Notes: generated from the sequence alone by a model not told the origin. A DNA stretch of 64,000 bases from an uncultured virus (IMG/VR IMGVR_UViG_3300035180_003568) (IMGVR_UViG_3300035180_003568); one strand, 5' to 3'; shown: positions 2,810 through 62,871, counted from the first letter of the stretch. Numbers and translations: made by a program.

Positions 2810-3132
2810 TCGTCCTTATTATCTAACTCTTCGCCTTTAGCCTCTAATAGAAATAGGGCATATTTAAGCTTAGCCGTCTGTACCTTTATTGAATCACGAT
2901 ATGGAAGAGAAATATCTTTCACCACCTCTTTAGCAGCATTCAACTTAATATCTTCAGATTTTTCTTTTTCTAGTGTATAGATGTTTCCTTCACAGGTAAC
3001 AATAATTTTCTTAAGTTCATCCACATCTGCAGCATCAGCGGTATCTTTAAATTCTGGAATTTCTTTTAGAACCTTTGCCCACTTCTCTGGGAATTCTGTG
3101 CCTACTGAGTTGTCGTCTTTCTTATCACTCAT
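2806..3132 (-). CDS. Hypothetical coiled-coil protein
   Basis: GGAG SD before ATG at 3132; operon packing. Confidence 0.6.
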   Translation of the reverse strand: MSDKKDDNSVGTEFPEKWAKVLKEIPEFKDTADAADVDELKKIIVTCEGNIYTLEKEKSEDIKLNAAKEVVKDISLPYRDSIKVQTAKLKYALFLLEAKGEELDNKDE

Positions 3133-3144
3133 TTTAATCTCCAA

Positions 3145-4392
3145 TTACTCTATAATTCTAACTGATTTAGATACGAAATCTAATGTGTACTCATCTCTGA
3201 TTCTAGAGAACAAAATCTGTAAATATCCAGTTCTGTTCATTTCCTTAATAACATCATCTAGTGATGCGGTGGTTCTTGATTTGGCAAGATTTTGTTTTAC
3301 AATTTCAAATACTTCTTGATCAGATAACTGCGCCTCTGGCTCTAGCTCTCTAACTCTATCTAAAACAAGAGAAACAGTAACATTACGTTTGGCTAATGTT
3401 AAGAATCTCTCCTTGTCCGCATCTTCTAATTTATCCCAATCTAGCTTAGCCTGATAAGCCAAATATTTTGCCTCAGATAAAGACATCCAGTTTGGAACAT
3501 CCACTTTATTCAAATCTGCAAGCTTATTTGAAAGAGCTTCATTAATAGCCATCTTATTATTATTCGCTATACGAGCTGCTGCCGACGCATTAACGAACTC
3601 TTTTAATTCTGAAAAATCCTTTTTGTTCATTTTTTGAGCCAAAGTATCATCTAAAGGATGGGGCTCGGTTTTAGAACCCATATTCACGGTAACTTTAAAA
3701 TGAACTTTTTTACCAGCCAATGAAGGTAATCCATTTTCTGGAACTAGAACATCAAACTCTCTGGTCTCTCCGACTTTCATGCCCAATAAAGCATCATCAA
3801 ATTCTTTAATTGGACTCGCCCCTACGTTCAACATTTCGCCTTCTGCCGAAGCAGAATCAATTTTAACGCCATCCACCAAGCCTTCATAATCTACAATGAC
3901 ATTATCTCCCTTTTGGATAAAATCATCCTCTCCATACGGAGAGGTTTCTCCAAAACGCACTCTAAGTTCCTGCATCATTTTTTCTGATAGATCAATCACA
4001 GATATAGTTTCAACTGGCTTTGGAAGCTCTAGCCCTTGATATGAAGCCAGTTCAAACGCTGGCTTTGTAAATAAATCAAAATCACAGGTAAATTTACCAC
4101 CAATAAATAACATGGCGGTAAAAAATGGAGCCCCATGAGGCTTAATCTTTTTTTCAAAAAGCGTATTATGATATGCATCTTCTGCTAAAGCTCTTTTTAG
4201 AGCATCATCGATTTGCTGACGGTAATGCATATTGATTGCATCAGGAGTTGCCTTACCAGGTCTAAACCCAGGCACTGGAGCCTTTTTGAAGGCGCCAATT
4301 ACTTCCGCGCGCTTGCTTAAAATTTCTGAGGCATCCGCCTCATAATGAACTGATAATTTGCAGGGTTCTATTTCTTTTACTTCAATTTGCAT
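3145..4392 (-). CDS. tig: Trigger factor
   Basis: Ribosome-binding signature VPGFRPGKA, FKBP domain (GDNVIVDYEG), 415 aa. Confidence 0.93.
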   Translation of the reverse strand: MQIEVKEIEPCKLSVHYEADASEILSKRAEVIGAFKKAPVPGFRPGKATPDAINMHYRQQIDDALKRALAEDAYHNTLFEKKIKPHGAPFFTAMLFIGGKFTCDFDLFTKPAFELASYQGLELPKPVETISVIDLSEKMMQELRVRFGETSPYGEDDFIQKGDNVIVDYEGLVDGVKIDSASAEGEMLNVGASPIKEFDDALLGMKVGETREFDVLVPENGLPSLAGKKVHFKVTVNMGSKTEPHPLDDTLAQKMNKKDFSELKEFVNASAAARIANNNKMAINEALSNKLADLNKVDVPNWMSLSEAKYLAYQAKLDWDKLEDADKERFLTLAKRNVTVSLVLDRVRELEPEAQLSDQEVFEIVKQNLAKSRTTASLDDVIKEMNRTGYLQILFSRIRDEYTLDFVSKSVRIIE

Positions 4393-12520: not shown

Positions 12521-13057
12521 TCATTTGCCGCAACATTTTTTGTATTTTTTACCAGACCCACAAAAACATGGCTGATTAGGTCCTGGTTTTACTGCAATAG
12601 TTACTGATTTTGGTTTAGGTATAGATCTGTCCATAAATAGTTTTTGTGTTAAATGATCTATTTCATGTTGACAAACCACCGCCAATAATCCAGTAGCTAC
12701 AAATTTATAAGGGTAAACAAGATTGTCAGAAATATGAATTTCTTGAAATCTTGTAGTATCTTCAACTCTACCAGGAAAAGATAAACACCCCTCTTGTCGG
12801 TGAATAATTGGATCAAACCCCGCAATAATTCTACAATTTACAAGATTAAAATTCATATCACTAGACTTATTTAATCTAACAATTGCAATATCTTTTGCGA
12901 TACCAATTTGTGGGGCTGCTAATCCTATACCGGAACGCCCCATTTTTGTGGAATATTCTAGCTCACGCTCTAATATTTCCACTAATGAACCGATCTCTTC
13001 AGGCAGCACCGGCTCACACGCCACTCGTAAAAGAGTCTCATCGTTTGTTATAATCAT
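12521..13057 (-). CDS. def: Peptide deformylase with C-terminal SEC-C motif
   Basis: GIGLAAPQIG, EGCLS, QHEIDH; C-terminus GPNQPCFCGSGKKYKKCC. Confidence 0.93.
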   Translation of the reverse strand: MIITNDETLLRVACEPVLPEEIGSLVEILERELEYSTKMGRSGIGLAAPQIGIAKDIAIVRLNKSSDMNFNLVNCRIIAGFDPIIHRQEGCLSFPGRVEDTTRFQEIHISDNLVYPYKFVATGLLAVVCQHEIDHLTQKLFMDRSIPKPKSVTIAVKPGPNQPCFCGSGKKYKKCCGK

Positions 13058-16514: not shown

Positions 16515-16868
16515 TTATTCAGAGTCTTTAGTTTTCACACGACTGGTTTTTCTTACCAAATCATCATTAAAATCTAAAGATTTTCTCTTGGCTTCGTTTC
16601 TTTTGCGACGACGTTTATCAGATGGTTTCTCATAAGTTTGCCTCTCTTTATAAGAGGAGAGAATTCTCTCTTTTTGAACTAAAGCTCGAAAAGCTCTAAT
16701 TGCCTTATCGAAATTATTATTATAAACAATAACTTCTAGCGGCTTTGCTTGAACTGGCTCAATATGAGCAAATTCAGATGGTGTAACCGCTACATCTGGC
16801 TTAAACGTATCACCTCCCTTCACGACCTTCTTGGAGTTTCTTTTATTCTTTTTAAACTGTTCTTTCAT
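16515..16868 (-). CDS. rpsU: Ribosomal protein bS21 with N-terminal extension
   Basis: EVIVYNNNFDKAIRAFR...YEKPSDKRRRK. Confidence 0.85.
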   Translation of the reverse strand: MKEQFKKNKRNSKKVVKGGDTFKPDVAVTPSEFAHIEPVQAKPLEVIVYNNNFDKAIRAFRALVQKERILSSYKERQTYEKPSDKRRRKRNEAKRKSLDFNDDLVRKTSRVKTKDSE

Positions 16869-18237: not shown

Positions 18238-20025
18238 TTAAGCGGAATTTACTGGTTTAGTAAACTTACATTTTGGATAAGCAGAACATGCCAGAAATTT
18301 TCCCCCATTTGATGTAGCCGTTCTAACTGACATTGGACTGCCGCACTTATCGCAAAGTGTCCCTCCGCACTCAATATATGCCTTGTCTATTTCAGATTTA
18401 AAGGAAGGATAAAACTTTTTTAACATATCGATATGATTAACTTTTCCAGACTCAATTTCGTCTAGGTTTTGCTCCATTATAGCGGTATAATCATAGTCCA
18501 TGAATGTAAAGTATTTTACTAGCACGTCAGTAATTTTCTTACCTAACTCAGTTGCATGATATACGTTACCTTTCTTTTCTACATAATTACGCGCAGTAAT
18601 CTTACTTAAAAGATCGGCATAGGTTGCCGGTCTACCAATATTCTTTTTAACCAGCTCTTTGATTAATTTATCTTCTGAATATCTACCAGGCGGCTGTGTT
18701 TGTTTCTTTTCCATTCTTACTGGAAGATTATCAAAATGATATAATATGTCTCCAACCAAGAGATTAGGAATATCTATTTTACTGTCATCGGTAAGACCGA
18801 GAACCTTCAAAAACCCCGGATCTTTCAAAGCCTTACCAGAAGCCTTTACTTCTGCCGTTGGGTCTCCTTTTACATTAGCAGTAATTTTTAATGTATTATA
18901 GATTGCCGGTGTCATCTGGCTTGCTACGAAATAGTTCCAAATAGTTTCATAGACCAACTTTTCATCAGGATCAATCATAGCGAAATTGTCTTTAGGCAAA
19001 AGAGAAAGATCTGAAGGTCTGATACATTCATGTGCGTCTTGAGCGGCATCTTTATTTTTATAAACGTTTGGTTTTTTGGGAACATCATAATTATTCGTCT
19101 TCAACCAATCTCGGACTTCCTGAACTGCTTCATCGCCCACACGTACAGAGTCTGTACGAATATATGTACAATAACCATTTTCATAAAGCGATTGAGCGGC
19201 TTTCATGGTTCTTTCGGCGCCAAACCCATGAACTCTGGACATAATTTGCTGCAATGTCGAGGTCACCAATGGTGCCACGGGTGATTTCTTTTCCTCTTCT
19301 GCCGTTACATCAGTAACTACAAACTCAGCCTTATTGATAGCCAATTTATCTCGCATGGCGGCTGCTGATTTAGCCTCAGTTAGTTTTCCGGAGTACTTCG
19401 TGGTAAAACCAGTTTTACCATCTTTGGATAATCGAACCTCAATTGTCCAATAATTTTCTGGAACGAAAACCTCAATTTCTCGCTCACGATCTACGACCAT
19501 ACGCGTAACTACGGATTGCACTCTGCCAGCAGAGAGCTTTGGACCAAAGAAATTCATCAAAAATGGAGATGCGGTAAAACCTACCAAACGATCTAATATT
19601 CTTCGAGCCTCTTGAGAATGGAAGAGGTTCATATCTATCTCTCTTACGTCTTTGACAGCTTTAAGCAGTTTGTCTTTTTTAATTTCGTTAAAAACCATCC
19701 TTTTAATTGGCTTGTCAAAATCTTCTAATCTTTTAGCTAGATGCCAAGCAATAGCCTCGCCTTCTCGATCGGGGTCGCTGGCTACAAAAATCTGATCACA
19801 GGTTTTTGCAGCTTTCATTAACATATCTAGTGTATCAACTTTATCATCCATTAAAACATAATGTGGTTTAAAATCATTAACAATATCTACACCAATACCA
19901 TGCTTACCTCCTTTAGCAAGGTCAGTAATATGACCCTTACTGGCAAGCACCACATAATCTTTTCCAAGATATCCTTGAATCTTATCGGCTTTCGATGGAG
20001 ATTCTACAATAACTAGTGTTTTCAT
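18238..20025 (-). CDS. topA: DNA topoisomerase I (type IA)
   Basis: IVESPSKA, DPDREGE, SAGRVQS, TYIRTD, AHECIRP, GRPATY, C-terminal Zn ribbon. Confidence 0.96.
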   Translation of the reverse strand: MKTLVIVESPSKADKIQGYLGKDYVVLASKGHITDLAKGGKHGIGVDIVNDFKPHYVLMDDKVDTLDMLMKAAKTCDQIFVASDPDREGEAIAWHLAKRLEDFDKPIKRMVFNEIKKDKLLKAVKDVREIDMNLFHSQEARRILDRLVGFTASPFLMNFFGPKLSAGRVQSVVTRMVVDREREIEVFVPENYWTIEVRLSKDGKTGFTTKYSGKLTEAKSAAAMRDKLAINKAEFVVTDVTAEEEKKSPVAPLVTSTLQQIMSRVHGFGAERTMKAAQSLYENGYCTYIRTDSVRVGDEAVQEVRDWLKTNNYDVPKKPNVYKNKDAAQDAHECIRPSDLSLLPKDNFAMIDPDEKLVYETIWNYFVASQMTPAIYNTLKITANVKGDPTAEVKASGKALKDPGFLKVLGLTDDSKIDIPNLLVGDILYHFDNLPVRMEKKQTQPPGRYSEDKLIKELVKKNIGRPATYADLLSKITARNYVEKKGNVYHATELGKKITDVLVKYFTFMDYDYTAIMEQNLDEIESGKVNHIDMLKKFYPSFKSEIDKAYIECGGTLCDKCGSPMSVRTATSNGGKFLACSAYPKCKFTKPVNSA

Positions 20026-31299: not shown

Positions 31300-31776
31300 T
31301 ATTGTTCCACAAGCACAAATACTCGATCTGAACCGCCAGAACCTTCAACTTCAATAATTTTACCCTCTGCAATTAAAGAGTCAGCAGCTTCATGTACAAA
31401 AACTGTCACCTATGTCTTTAGTTACCCTAAGATATAAAATGAGTTGTAATTTTGGGTCGAGAGTTACCACATTTTGGATAATCTATATATCAGAGAATAT
31501 AATTCACTCTGAAGATTTTCTACGGGAATTGGATCCCCATTTGGACTGGCTATTTTAACTGTCCCATATTTGTGACGAGTTTCTAGTTCGTCTTTAAGAA
31601 TCCTGATTCTGGCTTGTATTTCTGAACGAGTCATAATATGAATATATCAGTTATTTACTAGACCTGCGGGAGATATATTTGCCAAGATAAACCAGACCCC
31701 AGTATATTCCATAAAAGGAAGAATATACAATATTAGAACAAGTATAAATGGTCAGAGAAAAACTACCGTTGTAAAC

Positions 31777-32422
31777 TTGCCAAACTCTTGTTCATCTTGC
31801 CAGTTATTTTCAAGACCATTTTCTTCCATTTATAAGAAAATTAGAATGTTCAATATTAATATTGAACATTTTCTTGGGAAAAAACATTGGCTAGGTTCTA
31901 TTAAATCTAGCAAATCTTTAGATGAGATATTAATTGAAAATAGCGACTATTCATGTACTTCAAGATTAAAGGATATTTTAATTAAAAATAATATTCTTTA
32001 TAATTCTTGTTACGAATGTAAGCTTGGTACAACATGGAATGGTAAAAAAAATATCACTTCAAATTGATCATATCAATGGTATTAGATCTGACAATAGAAT
32101 TGAAAATTTAAGAATTTTATGCCCTAATTGTCATTCTCAAACAGAAACATTCTCTGGTAAAAATGCCAGAAAAATTAAATTTTGTAGCTGTGGAGAAACT
32201 ATAAATAGAAGGCAAAATAAATGTAAATCTTGTTCTAGCATATGTAAAGAGAAAATAATTTGGCCAACAACTAAAGAACTTATAGAAATGATCCTAAATA
32301 TGGGATATCGACCAACTTGTCGAAAATTAGGAGTTAGTGATCCATCAATAAGGCGAAGATTAGAAAATCAAGGAATTGATCCCAAATTAAATAATCTAAA
32401 AATTTATTTCAAAACATTGTGA
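31777..32422 (+). pseudogene. tRNA-adjacent HNH homing endonuclease, frameshifted
   Basis: LDEILIENS...CYEC...WNGKK joins ISLQIDHING...NLRILCPNCHSQT across an A8 run at about 32044-32051. Confidence 0.75.
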
Positions 32423-32490
32423 TCTTTATGAGATTCGAACTCATCTCTTTCCTTTTAGAGAGGAAGGCACCACCACTATACCAAAAGATC
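32420..32490 (-). tRNA. Amber suppressor tRNA (anticodon CTA), copy 2
   Basis: Acceptor GATCTTT/AAAGATC, anticodon arm TTCCT-CTCTAAA-AGGAA, T-arm ATGAG-TTCGAAT-CTCAT; CCA not encoded. Confidence 0.85.
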
Positions 32491-32533
32491 TTTTATGTTA
32501 CTTTATAGGGGCAATCTATAAAGATAGATTGCT

Positions 32534-32609
32534 TGGTTCTTCCGGTGGGACTCGAACCCACGACCAAGATATTTAGAGGATCCTGCTCTAACCACTGAGC
32601 TACAGAAGA
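32534..32609 (-). tRNA. Amber suppressor tRNA (anticodon CTA), copy 1
   Basis: 76 nt; acceptor TCTTCTG/CGGAAGA, D-arm GCTC/GAGC, loop CTCTAAA, GTGGG-TTCGAGT-CCCAC, encoded CCA. Confidence 0.9.
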
Positions 32610-32887
32610 AAATAGACTATTTAGTCTTTATTGGTTTAGGACATTCGACCTCATCAAGAAGTGAAATTTCTTGTGCAAGAGATTCAGATAATCCTTGCAA
32701 TTTGTAAAACAATTTGAATTGTTCATCAGCCCAATCACCATCTAATAAAATATGATTGTCATTTACAACATGATAAAGTTTAATAGCTTTTTATAGATAT
32801 CTTTTCTTATTTTATTGAATGATTTATTTACAACAAGTCCCATAATAGTCTTTCTTAAAAGGTCCCCTGGGATGCATAATTCCAAAA

Positions 32888-33229
32888 TTATGTTTTGAAT
32901 GCCAATTTAATTTGTGAGACCATTTTTTTTGTTAAAGGGCTGGGCGCTATACATATAGCAGTTAGCTCGCCATTAAGATCTGGTTCATAAAAATTAGAAT
33001 AAGGTATATCTAAATTATTAGCTTTTTCACACAATTCATTTAATTCATTTTCCGTTTTTACACAAAGTAAGCATATATAATTTGAATTATTATACCAATC
33101 TCTATCAATCTCGGGATGATCGTTTGCGAATTCTCTTAATGCATGGCATAATTGTGAAGCTTGCTGACCAAATGTTAAATCTTCTCTGGTGATAACATAC
33201 AACTTATCACCTTCTTTAATCTACGTCAT
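32888..33229 (-). CDS. Peptidyl-tRNA hydrolase (Pth2-like) with in-frame TAG at codon 3
   Basis: KLYVITREDL..GQQASQLCHA...FYEPDLNGELTAICIAP; reading frame begins ATG ACG TAG ATT AAA at 33229. Confidence 0.82.
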
Positions 33230-33231
33230 AA

Positions 33232-33606
33232 TCATTCCCCTTTCAACCAGTTTTCGATCTTTTCCAAAGACCACCAACCATTCTTTATTTCATATTCCGG
33301 CACATGCTGATGCACAATCTCAAGAATTAATTTAGCCTTGGGCTTGTTATCTTCTCGGCAACGTTTTTCCAAAAGCAAATACGAATCGCCACGTAAAAAC
33401 GCATAAGCTAACAAGTGATGGCGCGCATCAATACTCACCAAGCGCTTGCGATGAGATAAACTCCAAACGACTTTATCCGACTTACTTTTCAGTAGTCGGA
33501 CTCTAGCTCGCTTGGCTTCAACCGCCAAGCCCTTAATCTTACCAATCAAACAGAATTTTGAATTATTACCGTAGATTTCATGACGAGCAAAAACATTAGT
33601 ATTCAT
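33232..33606 (-). CDS. Conserved-looking basic phage protein of unknown function
   Basis: GAGGTG SD before ATG 33606; KIKGLAVEA...ARHHLLAYAFLRG. Confidence 0.75.
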   Translation of the reverse strand: MNTNVFARHEIYGNNSKFCLIGKIKGLAVEAKRARVRLLKSKSDKVVWSLSHRKRLVSIDARHHLLAYAFLRGDSYLLLEKRCREDNKPKAKLILEIVHQHVPEYEIKNGWWSLEKIENWLKGE

Positions 33607-33632
33607 AATACACCTCATAAAAAGTCAAAACA

Positions 33633-33704
33633 TCAAACAATAGATTGAAGATAACTTTTACAAGGCGGAGCCCGTGAACGGTTCTATAAGAAATTATTTT
33701 TCAT
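33633..33704 (-). promoter_or_regulatory. Leader peptide MKNNFL[TAG]NRSRAPPCKSYLQSIV with SD-sequestering hairpin
   Basis: GAGGA SD 8 nt before ATG 33704; TAG 33686-33684; RAPP 33674-33663; stem 33667-33652 pairs with 33627-33611. Confidence 0.7.
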
Positions 33705-33897: not shown

Positions 33898-34211
33898 TTA
33901 TTCCTTGCTGGTTAATTTTTCTAATAATGCGCGAGGATTTAAGAGTTCTTTTGGTTTTTCATCATCTAACACCTAGGTTACATGATCTGTAGTCCCCGGC
34001 AAATAATGTTCAAAATGTAACATCGTGGTTCCATTACCTTTATCTTTTTTAAGAACAGGAACAATGGTTGCAATGACATCACCTTCTTTTACTCGCACGC
34101 CTTCAGTAAGGTATGAAACAGGCATAAGTTCACAATAACCTAAAGCTCCTGATGCCCCTCAATAATAATTGAGAATGTTTCATTCCACCAAGGAGAGGGT
34201 GGTGTTGCCAT
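33898..34211 (-). pseudogene. M23-family peptidase remnant
   Basis: SPWWNET...GVRVKEGDVIA...MLHFE...LLNP; 5' truncated, one frameshift and an internal TAG at 33975-33973. Confidence 0.6.
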
Positions 34212-34274
34212 AATATTATGGGTAGATCTCACCAGCGTCAATGTCTGTAGATAATATCATTTTGTTCTTTGAAC

Positions 34275-34346
34275 AGAAACTGCTTTGCAAAAAGAAACTG
34301 CTTTGCAAAAAGAAACTGCTTTGCAAAAAGAAACTGCTTTGCAAAA
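34275..34346. repeat. Perfect tandem repeat, 4 x 18 bp (AGAAACTGCTTTGCAAAA)
   Basis: Direct reading; no spacers. Confidence 0.95.
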
Positions 34347-34417
34347 TTCAATTAATTGTCAGAAAAAGATTGCCATACTGACTGCATATCAGTGGTGGAG
34401 CTGTTGGTAAAAATTTG

Positions 34418-34771
34418 TGGAGCTGTGCGGTACTGCCCCGCAGTCCAAAACAGTCTAAATTAATATTCTTTCACAGATATAGTCAATTTCAATGTAATTG
34501 ACAACATTTCATATGATTTGCCATATGATAGCTAGATTCTGTTAATTTCATTTTCATGCCCGAAACCAGCATGAAAACTATCTTTGGTGAATTATACCCT
34601 GAGAGTTACTAAAGATACCTTACGTCAGGATATCCATTAAGCAGCTAGTGCTACTGGAGCAAATGCATTATCGTTAGCATTTATACGTTGATTGTGTTTT
34701 TAACCCGGTGATACAACCATCCGGAATCTGCATATTAACTCTTCGTGCTCTGTCGAATCTGTGTCAACCCC
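34418..34771 (-). ncRNA. ssrA: tmRNA (one-piece), tag ANDNAFAPVALAA
   Basis: 5' GGGGTTGACACAGATTCGAC, acceptor GGGGTTG/CAGCTCC with G3:U, resume context ATAAAT-GCT AAC GAT AAT..., tag ending LAA-TAA. Confidence 0.93.
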
Positions 34772-35660: not shown

Positions 35661-36050
35661 TTACGGCATCTGTCCTTTTACATTACCAATGGCAATATGA
35701 AATCTATGTCTTCCATCTGGAGATTTTGTATATGGACAAGCCCAATTCTAGCCTGATTTTTTTCTAAATCTGCCGCATAAACATTTAACTAATAATATAT
35801 TTTGCCATTATAAACTACATCTTCATATTCAAATTCTATAGGATTTCCATCATATTTCTTCCAAAATTCCAATTTTATTGGAACTTAGTTTCTGATAACA
35901 GAAATATGAGCTAAGTATTTTTGCTTTGCTACATTAAAATATTTTGGTATTAGTGACCTATATAGGTCAGATAATGATTGATCTACTTCCATAATTAATT
36001 TGTGTTGATTGTCATAATATCTTAAAGTTCCGATAGATTTATAAAATATA
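35661..36050 (-). pseudogene. Degraded 2H-phosphoesterase-like gene (5' boundary approximate)
   Basis: YRSLIPKY...AHISVIR...RLELGL...FHIAIG, interrupted by TAA, TAG and frameshifts. Confidence 0.5.
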
Positions 36051-36199: not shown

Positions 36200-36991
36200 T
36201 TAAAAACTTTCATGTCTAAAAATATCCGCCCCATTCTTAAATATATTAGATAAGAATGATTGGTCTTTGGTAAAGATTGGTAAATCATGATTAACAAACC
36301 ATTTATTTTTCATGGTACCGTTAACAACTTTTGGAATCTTATAGCAAGCCGATCCTCGCTTATATGAAGCTGAATAGTCATTAAAATCAATATTACACTC
36401 TTGCCGCAACAGATCTACCTTTTCATCTATGCTTAATCCGGATAACATTTCTTTGATGGCGTTTTTGTCGTAATTTTTCTTTAGAAGCTCATAAAAACAC
36501 GCAAATTGAATTGATGTTTGAAAATTTTGCTGTTGCTTGAAAACCAATGCATTAGTAGCCTCTGCAATATTTGGGACTGCAAATACTTGTGTAATAAAAA
36601 TAGGCTCTCCAAGCAAATTCAGATCAATTGCATTAGAACAAGTATTAAAATGCATTGTGGCAATAGCTGATACTGCGGAACATATTTTTTGAATTTTATT
36701 ATCATACCAAGGGCTGGTATCAATACTCTGATCGTTACGGATGGCTAAAGTAATTTCATCATTATGCTGATACGCAAAAACCGCACCATCAATATCTGAA
36801 CAAAGCTTAAGCATGGTTGAAAACATACATTCGGCAAATTTTGGACAAAATGGCTTATCCAAAAGAGAAGTATTTTTGGAAAAAGAGCGCCCATTAACAT
36901 TGATAATTAATGGAACTTTGGGCAAAAGTCTAGTATTTGACGATTCTGAATAAGAATCGATTCTGTCTTTTAAAGATATAGCCATGTACAC
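36200..36991 (-). CDS. tRNA(His) guanylyltransferase Thg1-like protein
   Basis: PLIINVNGRSFSK, AYQHNDEIT, WYDNKIQK, YKRG. Confidence 0.85.
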   Translation of the reverse strand: MYMAISLKDRIDSYSESSNTRLLPKVPLIINVNGRSFSKNTSLLDKPFCPKFAECMFSTMLKLCSDIDGAVFAYQHNDEITLAIRNDQSIDTSPWYDNKIQKICSAVSAIATMHFNTCSNAIDLNLLGEPIFITQVFAVPNIAEATNALVFKQQQNFQTSIQFACFYELLKKNYDKNAIKEMLSGLSIDEKVDLLRQECNIDFNDYSASYKRGSACYKIPKVVNGTMKNKWFVNHDLPIFTKDQSFLSNIFKNGADIFRHESF

Positions 36992-60316: not shown

Positions 60317-62389
60317 TTAAGCCTTATCAATTAAGTTTACATATTGTGCAATACTGCTACATAGTTGTTCGTAATTATACACACTAATTGCACTTAACAG
60401 CGGATATTTTTCATCAATCTTTTTTTGGAGTTTTGGTAGGTTTCTATCTGGATTGGAATTTTCATAATCCGCCATATCCTTTTTTGAAATCTCTCCAGCT
60501 ACTAATTCATATAAATCTAACATCGAGTCATGCTGTTGAGCGAGTTTACTTATAGTGTTATGTAATTCAATCTTTTTAAGGAAGAGTGAATTCTTATCTT
60601 CAATCATTGGAGATAGTTTTTTTGCTACAGAAATTAATCTGGCTTCAACATAATGACTCTGTGTCGCTGCAAACTTTATCTCGACAAAATTCGTTTTCTT
60701 GGCATCAGAAAAATTCTCTTTTAGAAAATCTTCTAAATTGCCAAAATCCTCGGCAATCCTATCGTCTGAAATGTCGCTATCAATGCCATAAAATGAAACT
60801 TTGGGATGAAGTTCTTGTAATCCCTTAAATATATGTGCAGAAATAAGTTTCTTGTTTTCCAAGATGGCACTTCTATTGGCAGAAGCGTCCCTGGTTAGTT
60901 TGCAAAGAATTTTGTCCTGAGAATCTACGTCAATTGACGAATATGATACCTGCCTAAAAGCCGCAGCCTTGGGATCAAACTTGAAGACTAATAGTCTGGA
61001 AGTTGCTGGAGTATAATTACGAGCAGTCGCCGTTGCAACGGATGACAGTAGCTTATATCCCATTTTATCAAAATGGTACTTCTTTTTCAAGACATCTAAG
61101 GTTACCTTGTCATTTGCGCAAACCACCTGAACAGATGTTAAATTTGAATCTGTATCGAAAATCTTTCGCACATGCTTAGGTGTTGGTTCCTTAAGAGGAA
61201 GGTCATTGAAATATAGCGCGGAATTATTTTGGAAAACTAAATGGTTATTCAGTCCCCTCCTAATCTTATTAGAATCATATCCTTTACCACGGGGATAGCC
61301 TCCTTTCTGGAAGTAATACACGGAACAATCCACAGAATCGTGTCGATTACGAAGCTCAATTCCTTGCCAAGTCAATTTGCCCAAAAATGTAATATTACTA
61401 AAGCTATTGGTAAGCTCGGACTGGAAGAAGATATTTGCTGACCATAGATCAGGCAGGGATGCTATTTTATCTTCCACACGTTTCTTAAGTTCTTTTACAA
61501 CTAATTCAATTCGTTTAGAAATCTTTGCCTGCGTCGGCTTATCAAGGTAAACCGCTTCACGGCTGGCTGAAAGACTCAATTCCCCAATACCAAAGTAAAG
61601 ATACAAATTACCATAAAGCGCGCCGATCACGGCGCTGTCAGCATAGGTCTTGAGAGCGTTTAGGTCAACGGGATACTCAATCCCGTCAATAATAATCTTA
61701 ACAGTGCGGTTATAATCGTTAGACGCCATGACCGCCCAGCCAGTACCCGAGATGGTTTTCGTAGGAGTTTTATAGTCAAATTTCCCGCCTCGAATAATAG
61801 GAAGAACATCCCAGTGGCGGGTTGCAAACTCTGTCCATTCCGCAAAATTACGGAAATCCGCAGGTTTGACAGGAACGATAATCTCGGTCCCGTTTTTCTC
61901 GGTGGTTGGAGACTCTCCAAGAGTCATTAGTTTGCCGACCTTTGTCTCATCAATTACGCAAGCGTAATTGTACTCAATGCCATTAAATACTGTCTTAATA
62001 GTAAATGTATCGCTATACGAGAATGGAGTTTTAGCACCCAATCCAAAACCTCCGGTCTGGATATTGTCCTCTCTCTTGGTACTCGCTGTATACTTAATAA
62101 AAATGTTAGACATGCGATCGGGACTAATCCCCGGACCAAAATCTCTGACTTTATAGAAAGGCTCTAGAGCGTTTGGGATAGTGATTTCCACCGGAACATC
62201 TTCCATTCCGACTTCTCGATGCGCGTCGCGCGCATTACACGAAATTTCTCGGCAAATAGCGAGAATGGGATTTGAATACATCTTATTGCGTAAGATGTCG
62301 AAAATCATTCCCTGATCTTGAATTGAGAAGAACTGCTCCTGCAACTCACCCGATGTTTCTACTGTAGGACGAATATCACTAAATTTCAT
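60317..62389 (-). CDS. rIIA: RIIA-like protein
   Basis: MYSNPILAICREISCNARDAH, VRDFGPG, STKR, GGFGLGAKTPFSY (GHKL domain). Confidence 0.9.
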   Translation of the reverse strand: MKFSDIRPTVETSGELQEQFFSIQDQGMIFDILRNKMYSNPILAICREISCNARDAHREVGMEDVPVEITIPNALEPFYKVRDFGPGISPDRMSNIFIKYTASTKREDNIQTGGFGLGAKTPFSYSDTFTIKTVFNGIEYNYACVIDETKVGKLMTLGESPTTEKNGTEIIVPVKPADFRNFAEWTEFATRHWDVLPIIRGGKFDYKTPTKTISGTGWAVMASNDYNRTVKIIIDGIEYPVDLNALKTYADSAVIGALYGNLYLYFGIGELSLSASREAVYLDKPTQAKISKRIELVVKELKKRVEDKIASLPDLWSANIFFQSELTNSFSNITFLGKLTWQGIELRNRHDSVDCSVYYFQKGGYPRGKGYDSNKIRRGLNNHLVFQNNSALYFNDLPLKEPTPKHVRKIFDTDSNLTSVQVVCANDKVTLDVLKKKYHFDKMGYKLLSSVATATARNYTPATSRLLVFKFDPKAAAFRQVSYSSIDVDSQDKILCKLTRDASANRSAILENKKLISAHIFKGLQELHPKVSFYGIDSDISDDRIAEDFGNLEDFLKENFSDAKKTNFVEIKFAATQSHYVEARLISVAKKLSPMIEDKNSLFLKKIELHNTISKLAQQHDSMLDLYELVAGEISKKDMADYENSNPDRNLPKLQKKIDEKYPLLSAISVYNYEQLCSSIAQYVNLIDKA

Positions 62390-62397
62390 TTATTTCC

Positions 62398-62871
62398 CTA
62401 AATTGAAAATTGGCGAGCAACAGCCATTGGCGCCCGCCTCCTATAAGAGTTTAAATCGTAAAAAATTGCCGTCAAGGGGGTCTTATTTTTTAAATTTGAC
62501 CACGTTTTGCTTTCCGCGATCTTCTTTAATAAAATTCGCGTGCGCTTGCTCGGATCTTTAGTTAAGAACCCTTTGCCAATTCCTTTGGAATAATCAAGTT
62601 TTGATTTGAATTGATGCTTAGTAATATCAAGAATAAAACCTGATGAATGTTTCAAAAAACAATGATTGGTTGAATTAACTTTCATACAATATGGTGTCCA
62701 ACCAGCATCTTTACCACCAAGTAAATGATAAGCCGCCTCACTAACAACATAACAATGCCCGTAAGTCGTGTCAAGTAGCGGGTGTAATTTTTTATATTTG
62801 TGGCGCTTGCTATCTAATAAATCATCAGATAGATTCTATATAAATAGCTCTTTAAATTCAAACCACTCCAT
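62398..62871 (-). pseudogene. Hypothetical protein (GHCYVVSEA motif), frameshifted near its start
   Basis: ATG 62871 MEWFEFKELFI is out of frame with LSDDLL...GHCYVVSEAAYHLLGG...ILDIT..QF. Confidence 0.5.
62448..62475 (-). promoter_or_regulatory. Sigma70-like promoter upstream of rIIA
   Basis: TTGACG-N16-TAAACT. Confidence 0.55.

Follow-up and report, generated by a model that had tools for sequence, protein, structure and literature searches.

The locus described here lies in a 64-kb stretch of DNA (64,000 nucleotides, hereafter the window) of the uncultured virus IMGVR_UViG_3300035180_003568. It combines a short leader open reading frame (ORF) interrupted by an in-frame amber codon, a gene for a basic protein of 124 amino acids (aa), a Pth2-like gene with a second amber at its third codon, and two genes for transfer RNAs (tRNAs) with the anticodon CUA. 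All of them are on the minus strand, as are 85 of the 95 ORFs called greedily in the window, which has 35% G+C. A sequence-only reading had listed these elements, had taken the two proteins to be made only when UAG is read through, and had proposed to look in homologs for the leader, the early TAG and the linked tRNAs. The leader with TAG and then RAPP, the basic protein of no recognised family, the Pth2-like gene with its early TAG and the two dissimilar CUA tRNAs are all present, and the three features recur in related loci. The elements are, from the leader downwards:

33633-33704, minus strand: leader ORF, read directly as MKNNFL-TAG-NRS-RAPP-CKSYLQSIV-TGA; homologous leaders in 39 of 39 loci
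33684-33686, minus strand: in-frame leader amber, preceded by the codon TTA (Leu) and followed by the base A; an invariant column in the alignment of 34 distinct leaders
33663-33674, minus strand: RAPP arrest motif, CGG GCT CCG CCT, placed by the RxPP alignment of the 34 distinct leaders
33611-33667, minus strand: predicted helix sequestering the Shine-Dalgarno sequence (SD) of the next gene; its 5' arm CCGCCUUGUAAAAGUU begins in the first Pro codon and its 3' arm GACUUUUUAUGAGGUG holds the SD
33232-33606, minus strand: basic protein of 124 aa; ATG at 33606, stop at 33234-33232; isoelectric point 9.88, 25 Lys and Arg versus 14 Asp and Glu
32888-33229, minus strand: Pth2-like gene with an amber at codon 3 (ATG ACG TAG ATT...), matched to PF01981; ATG to TAG at 33229-33221, stop at 32890-32888
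32534-32609, minus strand: tRNA(CUA) no. 2, 76 nucleotides (nt), found by ARAGORN, Rfam 61.0 bits; U1:A72, A73, CCA encoded
32419-32490, minus strand: tRNA(CUA) no. 1, 72 nt, found by ARAGORN, Rfam 55.4 bits; G1:C72, A73, variable loop of 4 nt, CCA not encoded

The leader and the gene behind it

Relatives were collected with the 124-aa protein, which found eight viral contigs, and by a scan of metagenomes, which led to 41 more loci; loci are designated by L numbers where they have to be told apart. A scan of IMG/VR with an alignment of Pth2 gave 377 relatives, and the counts over all loci use the best 80 of these 377. Contig comparisons were made on the window and five relatives' contigs (541,429 bp, both strands where stated), which cover only part of each genome. 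In the eight related viral contigs, the order 124-aa gene, Pth2-like gene and tRNA(CUA) is kept wherever the available DNA reaches.

A complete 124-aa gene was present in 42 loci, three of which lack upstream DNA, and the other 39 provided 34 distinct leaders. All 39 contain ATG-x(1-9)-TAG-x(1-6)-R-x-P in a single frame, with the complete RxPP in 38. The leader always lies on the same strand as the downstream gene, and its ATG is 79-104 nt from the ATG of that gene. In the window, the codons are ATG (33704-33702), AAA AAT AAT TTC TTA, TAG (33686-33684), AAC CGT TCA and CGG GCT CCG CCT, so that the translation is MKNNFL before the amber and NRSRAPPCKSYLQSIV after it, up to the TGA at 33635-33633. 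Searching the six contigs on both strands for ATG..TAG..R[AGS]PP gave 5 occurrences in 541,429 bp, each just upstream of a 124-aa gene, and the same pattern with TAA or TGA instead of TAG gave none in the same DNA. The leader pattern exceeds chance. ATG-x(1-12)-TAG was also tested for a general excess ahead of long open frames, and none was found (TAG 60, TAA 77, TGA 65); the signal is specific to certain gene families and not genome-wide.

Robust arrest motifs include RAPP and RGPP, which are refractory to elongation factor P (EF-P), avoided in proteomes and found close to the C-terminus of small ORFs located upstream of a variety of genes (PMC12992588). The ribosome stalls while RAP is attached to the P-site tRNA and Pro-tRNA occupies the A site; a minimal RxPP may be enough, and upstream residues modulate the effect (PMC10951233). 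In the 34 distinct leaders, the x position is filled by Ala 21 times and by Gly 9 times, through four codons each, and 3 times by Ser (TCT, TCG and AGC), while the Arg is written CGT in 21, CGC in 4, AGA in 4, CGG in 2, CGA in 2 and AGG in 1. The residue preceding the TAG is Leu in 26 of the 34, through four different codons. Because the Arg, x and Leu codons vary while the residues are kept, selection appears to act on the translated peptide on both sides of the stop. Between 5 and 8 residues precede the TAG and between 11 and 16 the presumed stall, which leaves no room for a signal sequence; neither a signal nor a transmembrane segment is present. In 10 of the 34 leaders the motif is directly followed by a stop codon. 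A purine 3' of UAG favours suppression, and the leader TAG is followed by A 26 times, by G 7 times, by C once and never by T, thus by a purine in 33 of the 34. The 3' base also affects recognition of a stop by release factor 1 (RF1) (PMC6412442).

The same codons carry a second constraint. The SD of the 124-aa gene, GAGGTG (33616-33611), lies inside a predicted helix of 16 bp formed with the leader segment that starts at the first Pro codon, in agreement with the sequence-only reading, which had described this SD as base-paired. The predicted probability that the SD pairs to the RxPP codons is above 0.5 in 33 of the 34 distinct leaders, with a median of 0.97. Placing a ribosome footprint at the TAG leaves the median predicted pairing unchanged (0.975). 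Since the 5' arm in the window starts in the first Pro codon, a ribosome stalled at the motif would cover all of it. CCT is used for the first Pro codon in 32 of the 34 leaders and for the second in 28, compared with a background of 33% among 6591 Pro codons in the genes of these phages (binomial p ~1e-13 and ~1e-9, respectively), and CCUCCU can base-pair with the AGGAG of the next gene. This bias points to selection at the RNA level at the Pro-Pro codons.

The protein encoded behind the leader has no informative match in Pfam, PHROG, NCBIfam or a sequence search of the PDB, and tblastn against cultured and deposited phages gave no match. Two alignments of relatives show a conserved core, R-H-H-L-L-A-Y-A-F-L-R-G-x-x-Y-x-x-x-E. 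The AlphaFold2 model, a confident one, shows a long basic helical hairpin and a small helical domain (predicted local distance difference 88.1, predicted template-modelling score 0.80). With this model, Foldseek found nothing in the PDB at E<=0.001, VIA-align returned generic helical hairpins with a best Z of 7.1, below the stated noise level for helical models, BFVD gave only uncharacterised relatives and the ESM Atlas no usable match. The family comprises 1756 cluster representatives at E<=1e-3, and all the cluster names are "hypothetical".

Two further observations concern the DNA upstream of the leader. A (T)GATATATAA-like box is conserved 8-25 nt upstream of the leader ATG in L002, L005, L008, L003, L043, L063, L072 and L075, and is possibly the -10 element of a phage promoter. 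At this place, the window and the L001 clade carry an inserted small Cys-rich ORF (33879-33694), whose end the leader ATG overlaps.

Early ambers and the neighbouring suppressor tRNAs

The Pth2-like protein matches PF01981 with an E-value of 3.3e-9 and 37.4 bits (cut-off 23), residues 9-109 covering positions 2-110 of the 115 of the profile. It aligns end to end with the archaeal Pth2 structures 2zv3 and 1wn2, with weak E-values, and in this weak alignment the acidic residue of its EPD falls near RDAG. An SD precedes the ATG in all nine sequences inspected (the window and 8 relatives); all read SD-ATG-x(-x)-TAG and offer no usable later start. The early TAG was present in 37 of 38 distinct N-termini of the first locus set, and over all loci 88 of the 102 distinct N-termini have a start-x(1-4)-TAG, with the amber at codon 3-5; neither an early TAA nor an early TGA occurs among these 102. 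The TTG at 33202, with a GAAGGTGA box, was considered as an alternative start and rejected, the same codon being CTT, CTG or TTA in relatives.

The same start with an early amber occurs in the published huge-phage records LR756500, LR756501 and LR756504. In LR756501 (L087), a phage of 735 kb, the Pth2-like gene at 3001-3291 starts ATG TCG TAG and contains another internal stop, with a pair of tRNA(CUA) genes 2.1 kb downstream; a wider use of TAG in this phage is possible. The Pth2-like protein also matched 206 Mycobacterium phage records. The cultured mycobacteriophage ScoobyDoobyDoo (L090, MZ820085, 29416-30026) has an annotated peptidyl-tRNA hydrolase followed by tRNA(cta), and the annotated GTG start of the hydrolase comes directly after GTG TAG.

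Many relatives, though not the window, have a third gene of ~190 aa between the 124-aa gene and the Pth2-like gene. It starts M-x(-x)-TAG in 22 of 22 loci with a full-length match, behind GGAGG-N8-ATG, and no Pfam or NCBIfam family was found for it. From the YHDCGKP motif only, our impression is that the protein may be HD-like. Its positions are:

L002, 4368-4946: third gene, with the YHDCGKP motif
L003, 4379-4954: third gene, with the same motif
20 further loci: third gene, with the same motif

Both tRNAs of the window fold as cloverleaves with a 7-nt anticodon loop CUCUAAA (U33, purine at 37), and their scaffolds differ at the acceptor end. No. 2 is 80-87% identical to stretches of jumbo phages annotated as tRNA-Sup-CTA in several records and as tRNA-Met in others. 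Among 25 distinct tRNA(CUA), 11 have U1:A72 (9 of them with G73), 5 have G1:C72 with C73 and 6 have G1:C72 with A73, the rest being of other types. Where a locus has two copies, one is usually of the U1:A72 type and the other of the G1:C72 type, as the window shows. The combination of U1:A72 and G73 resembles what we take to be glutamine identity, and C73, found in five tRNAs of relatives, is presumably a feature of histidine identity; a link between the C73 tRNAs and the Thg1-like enzyme of the phage is a guess. A suppressor inserting Trp was also considered, from alignments of TAG with Trp, and rejected, since one of the two positions (33973) lies in a peptidase remnant and the other (35789) is a single weak pair.

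Among the 22 loci with enough DNA, 19 have a tRNA(CUA) downstream on the same strand. The stop codon of the leader follows the anticodon of the neighbouring tRNA: of the 29 distinct leaders whose locus includes a suppressor tRNA, TAG stands with CUA in 25 and with UUA in 1, and TAA stands with UUA in 3 and with CUA in none. The three leaders with TAA (written @) are:

L089 (LR745208): MHH@LPYCRGPP, with tRNA(UUA)
L114: MTHFL@MPRGPP, with tRNA(UUA)
L119: MICYMLGYS@IRARSPP, with tRNA(UUA)

These leaders are dissimilar in sequence and lie beside different tRNA scaffolds, and none is accompanied by a tRNA(CUA). Each is followed by a relative of the 124-aa protein (core LAYAFLR..PY), a Pth2-like gene and the tRNA(UUA). 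Because a UUA anticodon also reads UAG by wobble, the single locus with TAG and UUA would fit as well. No leader with TGA and no tRNA(UCA) was found in any locus examined, and a search with the L089 protein for more ochre or opal variants returned the same phage only. That the leader stop tracks the neighbouring anticodon fits a leader that is read by the tRNA, and neither an untranslated element nor a fixed change of code. The tRNA(UUA) genes are long, 91 nt in L114 (3107-3197) and 95 nt in L097 (4231-4325), versus 72-80 nt for tRNA(CUA), and contain either a long variable arm like that of class II tRNAs or an insertion.

A proposed suppressor-dependent switch and its alternatives

The best reading of the locus, and in our judgement a probable one, is an arrest-peptide switch that depends on the suppressor tRNA. 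Ribosomes would begin the short leader, and at its UAG RF1 and tRNA(CUA) would compete. When RF1 wins, the hexapeptide would be freed, the helix would stay closed and the SD of the 124-aa gene would remain hidden (OFF). When tRNA(CUA) inserts its residue, the ribosome would advance six codons and stall, R-A-P occupying the P site and Pro the A site, and its footprint would cover the helix arm CCG CCU... and free the SD (ON). The Pth2-like gene would be gated directly by its amber at codon 3-5, a place at which any inserted residue would be harmless and an aborted product costless, and the ~190-aa gene of many relatives would be gated likewise. In a phage otherwise following the standard code, the suppressor tRNA would serve as trans-activator of a very small regulon. 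A negative feedback like that of SecM, in which the product relieves the stall, would be possible. The anatomy of the locus, its conservation, the constraints on peptide and RNA, the predicted geometry of pairing and the covariation of stop and anticodon are shown; the stall on the host ribosome and the opening of the SD we infer.

Comparative tests support the proposal of the sequence-only reading that the proteins would be made only upon readthrough of UAG by the linked tRNA. Its trigger had been a charged suppressor tRNA, a limitation of RF1, or both. The covariation of TAA with UUA argues for the linked tRNA, and a limitation of RF1 seems less likely because TAA, which is read by both release factors, still tracks the anticodon of the tRNA. 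That reading had also spoken of a peptidyl-tRNA rescue module; the match to PF01981 speaks for the Pth2 fold, and an identical function is not borne out by the NCBIfam equivalog thresholds. Since these thresholds failed and the Lys-rich loop is replaced, we file the protein by fold only, as a divergent Pth2 fold and putative hydrolase. As to purpose, because a transfer-messenger RNA (tmRNA) gene adjoins, the Pth2 fold is present and the window holds further translation genes, our guess is that the switch couples translation-rescue or tRNA-recycling factors to the time and level of suppression. This suggests that the gated factors may be needed during stop readthrough, or may recycle suppressor tRNAs or the short peptidyl-tRNAs arising from such starts and stalls.

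A fuller version would make the tRNA a dedicated trans-acting translational activator, the RxPP leader a device that turns the victory of a charged tRNA over the release factor into the opening of a ribosome-binding site, two further genes amber-gated, and the 124-aa protein a new factor directed at the ribosome or at tRNA that tunes termination, rescue or suppressor recycling. The whole would be a self-contained controller of what a stop codon means, with amber and ochre versions. We put this forward tentatively, as a possibility that we would not yet favour.

Several points weigh against the switch. Concerning the leader, L063 has a degenerate RDPT in place of RxPP. The fold of the window leader is not exceptional by itself (minimum free energy -20.7 kcal/mol, z -1.65, with 11 of 200 shuffles folding as well), so that the support for the helix comes from the relatives. 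RNAalifold on a MAFFT alignment of the 34 leaders found no consensus structure, and the helix gives little true covariation because its outer part, CCUCC with GGAG, is nearly invariant; Pro-Pro codons are moreover inherently similar to an anti-SD. With the footprint at RxP|P, the SD is still partly paired, the predicted median dropping from 0.97 to 0.57. Concerning the Pth2-like protein, its scores are below the NCBIfam equivalog cut-offs (28.8 versus 126 bits for NF003314 and 24.1 versus 82 for TIGR00283). Aligned to 2zv3 and 1wn2, it has G-QQ in place of the Lys-rich GKGK loop of archaeal Pth2, and we take this loop and the RDAG region to hold the catalytic residues. One Pth2 (L082) and 13 other N-termini are without an early amber, and the Pth2-like gene of the three loci with TAA leaders has no early stop. 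Concerning the tRNAs, 3 of the 22 loci have no tRNA(CUA) within ~2 kb, and the Fisher p of 0.0011 for the match between stop and anticodon ignores relatedness among the 25 TAG/CUA loci. Finally, the nascent chain would have only ~11-16 residues at the stall, and a stall on the ribosome of this particular host is not to be assumed, because N-terminal residues modulate arrest and its species specificity (PMC10951233).

The bias towards CCT in 32 of 34 leaders, the helix predicted in 33 of them and the natural complementarity of CCUCC to GGAGG could also be explained without any readthrough. A short upstream ORF would then end at the TAG, and the RxPP stretch would be kept as an untranslated anti-SD RNA that masks the SD, any regulation passing through translation of the upstream ORF or through another factor. 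Against this, the motif is in frame with the ATG and the TAG in 39 of 39 loci. The Arg is written with six codons from both families and the x residue is Ala, Gly or Ser, including Ser codons that are not adjacent, at positions outside the helix or at its edge. The covariation of stop and anticodon would be superfluous in an untranslated element. We consider this explanation unlikely.

Suppressor tRNAs and the rarity of TAG stops lead to the question whether TAG is an ordinary sense codon during the whole infection, in the manner of the code-15 recoded phages. Of the 614 ORFs with 100 aa or more in the six contigs, 18 end in TAG, and such a combination is a route to recoding according to Borges et al. 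(10.1101/2021.08.26.457843). Moreover, only part of each genome of ~430 kb is covered (CheckV estimates 34% for 145 kb). The distribution of TAG stands against this explanation. The long core genes of the window are intact under code 11 (the N-terminal part of dnaE, the SbcC-like gene, topA at 18241-20025 and rIIA/rIIB are open), and TAG still ends 6 of the 95 ORFs of the window, each time backed by a TAA or TGA 2-16 codons further on. In-frame TAGs with homology on both sides were looked for in the 541 kb, off-frame alignments being filtered out. A conserved case was found only in the Pth2-like gene, together with two unconserved cases specific to the window; the TAGs of the leader and of the third gene emerged from separate searches. 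Apart from 35789 and 62871, the in-frame TAGs of these contigs sit at the leader or at codon 3-5 of two gene families, at positions conserved over 40-68% protein identity, and the remaining in-frame TAG close by belongs to a decayed gene. A suppressor tRNA is present, as in code-15 phages, whereas the many TAG-interrupted structural and lysis genes of such phages were not seen in 541 kb. In the parts of the genomes covered, other genes are thus nearly free of internal TAG, in line with the view of the sequence-only reading that there is no global recoding, and code 15 appears improbable.

Two in-frame TAGs of the window outside the locus may be mentioned here. The gene at 62389-62871 on the minus strand (phrog_12251) has a TAG at codon 12 and no later start until codon 63. 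One homolog was found (L085), which has no TAG, and the five contigs contain none; this could be an additional gene under amber control or one with a recent nonsense mutation. The short minus-strand ORF at 35678-35884, between Thr tRNAs and the Thg1-like gene, has an in-frame TAG (35789) versus Trp in its homolog in G3.

The logic of the switch could also be inverted, readthrough and stall repressing the operon through blocking, mRNA cleavage or the action of tmRNA, and limiting expression when suppression is high. A phage tmRNA does adjoin, the SD is partly paired in the predicted stalled state (median 0.57), and the three gene families need not be co-regulated. On the other hand, the Pth2-like and third genes need readthrough, so that activation by the same signal would be the simpler design, and the helix arm lies wholly within the stalled footprint, as in secM-secA (PMC10951233). 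An inverted logic would therefore come as a surprise to us. As for sequencing errors, nonsense mutations or mis-called starts, decayed genes do lie nearby (a peptidase remnant and a frameshifted HNH gene) and TTG 33202 is a possible start in the window alone, but both TAGs of the window are covered without differences by contigs of two further public runs (X2 records 10 and 14; X3 record 17), the TAGs recur in dozens of independent assemblies and more than 100 independent loci, and the TTG is CTT, CTG or TTA in relatives, so that the comparative data may be said to refute this already and its chances are negligible.

Known systems and surroundings of the locus

The locus shares its layout with ApdA, ApdP, ApcA and the SecM-like RAGP peptides, in which a small ORF lies directly upstream with R-[A/G]-P-P at or near its end, and a helix that hides an SD can be opened by the stall (PMC10951233, PMC12992588). 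Unlike the leader described here, the RAPP and RGPP arrest peptides of those reports are longer monitoring substrates of secretory or membrane pathways, whose stall is relieved by the pulling of Sec or YidC. The phage leader has 11-16 residues before the stall, no signal sequence and a stop codon 2-7 codons before the arrest motif. It is encoded by a phage beside suppressor tRNAs, its stall is predicted from the sequence, and its input would be readthrough and not protein export.

In the stop-codon recoding of phages, a suppressor tRNA of the phage similarly makes in-frame stops readable, genes depend on this tRNA and TAG is depleted (Ivanova 2014, cited in PMC7162821; Borges et al., 10.1101/2021.08.26.457843). 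There, however, many structural and lysis genes carry scattered recoded codons, whereas here the code is standard and the TAGs occupy fixed regulatory positions of two or three translation-related genes. Another parallel is leader-peptide attenuation (trp, his, tna), in which translation of a leader tells whether a particular charged tRNA is available and determines downstream expression. The nearest published idea is an engineered switch with UAG in a leader peptide, in which expression needed an amber suppressor (Liu, Qi, Yanofsky, Arkin 2011, described in PMC6412442). Attenuation and the synthetic switch act on transcription termination, at an attenuator or a rut site, whereas the natural leader appears to act on access to the SD through an RxPP stall.

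The Pth2-like gene belongs to a set known from jumbo phages, across which PTH2 of the archaeo-eukaryotic type was described with a suggested role in ribosome rescue (Iyer et al. 2021, PMC7824862). The text of that survey mentions neither a suppressor tRNA nor a tmRNA, and an early stop codon is not in the passages covered. A search of the literature, supplements excluded, turned up no paper that brings together a stop codon, an RxPP leader and a suppressor tRNA, and none describing an early amber in a phage Pth2. The words suppressor and peptidyl are absent from the huge-phage paper, the words leader, arrest and readthrough from the recoding preprint (10.1101/2021.08.26.457843), and a 2026 analysis of jumbo phages mentions, in the part covered, suppressor tRNAs only in recoded genomes. 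To the same extent, the statement of the sequence-only reading that this is not a described system holds. The ATG-x-TAG that opens the Pth2-like gene also resembles the bar minigenes of phage lambda. These are ORFs of 2-3 codons (ATG-x-stop) with a good SD, which cause peptidyl-tRNA drop-off and whose toxicity depends on peptidyl-tRNA hydrolase. Unlike the start described here, the lambda minigene is free-standing and has no suppressor tRNA.

If the switch is real, it would be the first natural arrest peptide armed by stop-codon readthrough. It would join nascent-chain arrest with phage suppressor tRNAs and code change, fields studied apart, give a concrete purpose to suppressor tRNAs in huge phages with a standard code and be a natural counterpart of the engineered switches with UAG in the leader. 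The module is compact (~1.3 kb) and widespread (more than 100 loci), and exists in amber and ochre versions, so that it could be moved into reporter systems. The large uncharacterised family of the 124-aa protein and the divergent Pth2 clade are likely players in translation control during infection. The locus is also a warning for annotation, since such genes are mis-called or missed under code 11, as may be the case for the Pth of ScoobyDoobyDoo, whose start was placed directly after the TAG.

The window belongs to a very large phage. The contigs of its relatives, of 145-153 kb, have a CheckV completeness of 34-35%, and one related protein lies on a contig of 430 kb. Genes of the window include the N-terminal part of DNA polymerase III alpha, SbcCD-like proteins, topoisomerase I and rIIA/rIIB. 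Its translation and RNA-repair genes comprise, on the minus strand, a trigger-factor homolog with all three Pfam domains (3148-4392), a peptide deformylase ending in a SEC-C zinc motif (12524-13057), ribosomal protein S21 with an N-terminal extension (16518-16868) and a Thg1-like tRNA-His guanylyltransferase (36203-36991), together with two RNA ligases, a polynucleotide kinase-phosphatase and an RlaP-type nucleotidyltransferase. All these core, translation and RNA-repair genes are open under the standard code.

Upstream of the leader, at a distance of ~700 nt, the following gene was found by Rfam and missed by ARAGORN:

34415-34771, minus strand: tmRNA, Rfam RF00023, 88.2 bits, E 7e-34

A tmRNA is present at the same position in the relatives L002, L005 and L008, with tag peptides ANDNAFAPLALAA or ANDNAFAPVAQAA. 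We regard it as context, without implying that it is part of the switch. A scan for promoters was not above shuffles (12 versus 11.2), and no minus-strand terminator was found in the locus.

Between the tmRNA and the leader lies the remnant of an M23-like peptidase gene (33898-34241, minus strand). Compared with the intact homolog in G3 it has lost residues 1-61, and it contains a frameshift at ...IIEG|ASGA... and a TAG (33973) where three homologs have Trp (TGG). Between the tmRNA and this remnant, an 18-nt unit (AAAGAAACTGCTTTGCAA-like) is present in four tandem copies (34257-34340). On the other side of the locus, an HNH homing-endonuclease gene on the plus strand (31642-32422) directly adjoins the tRNAs. 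A run of eight A (~32046-32053) marks the point where this gene is divided into two overlapping frames, and both halves match phrog_10822.

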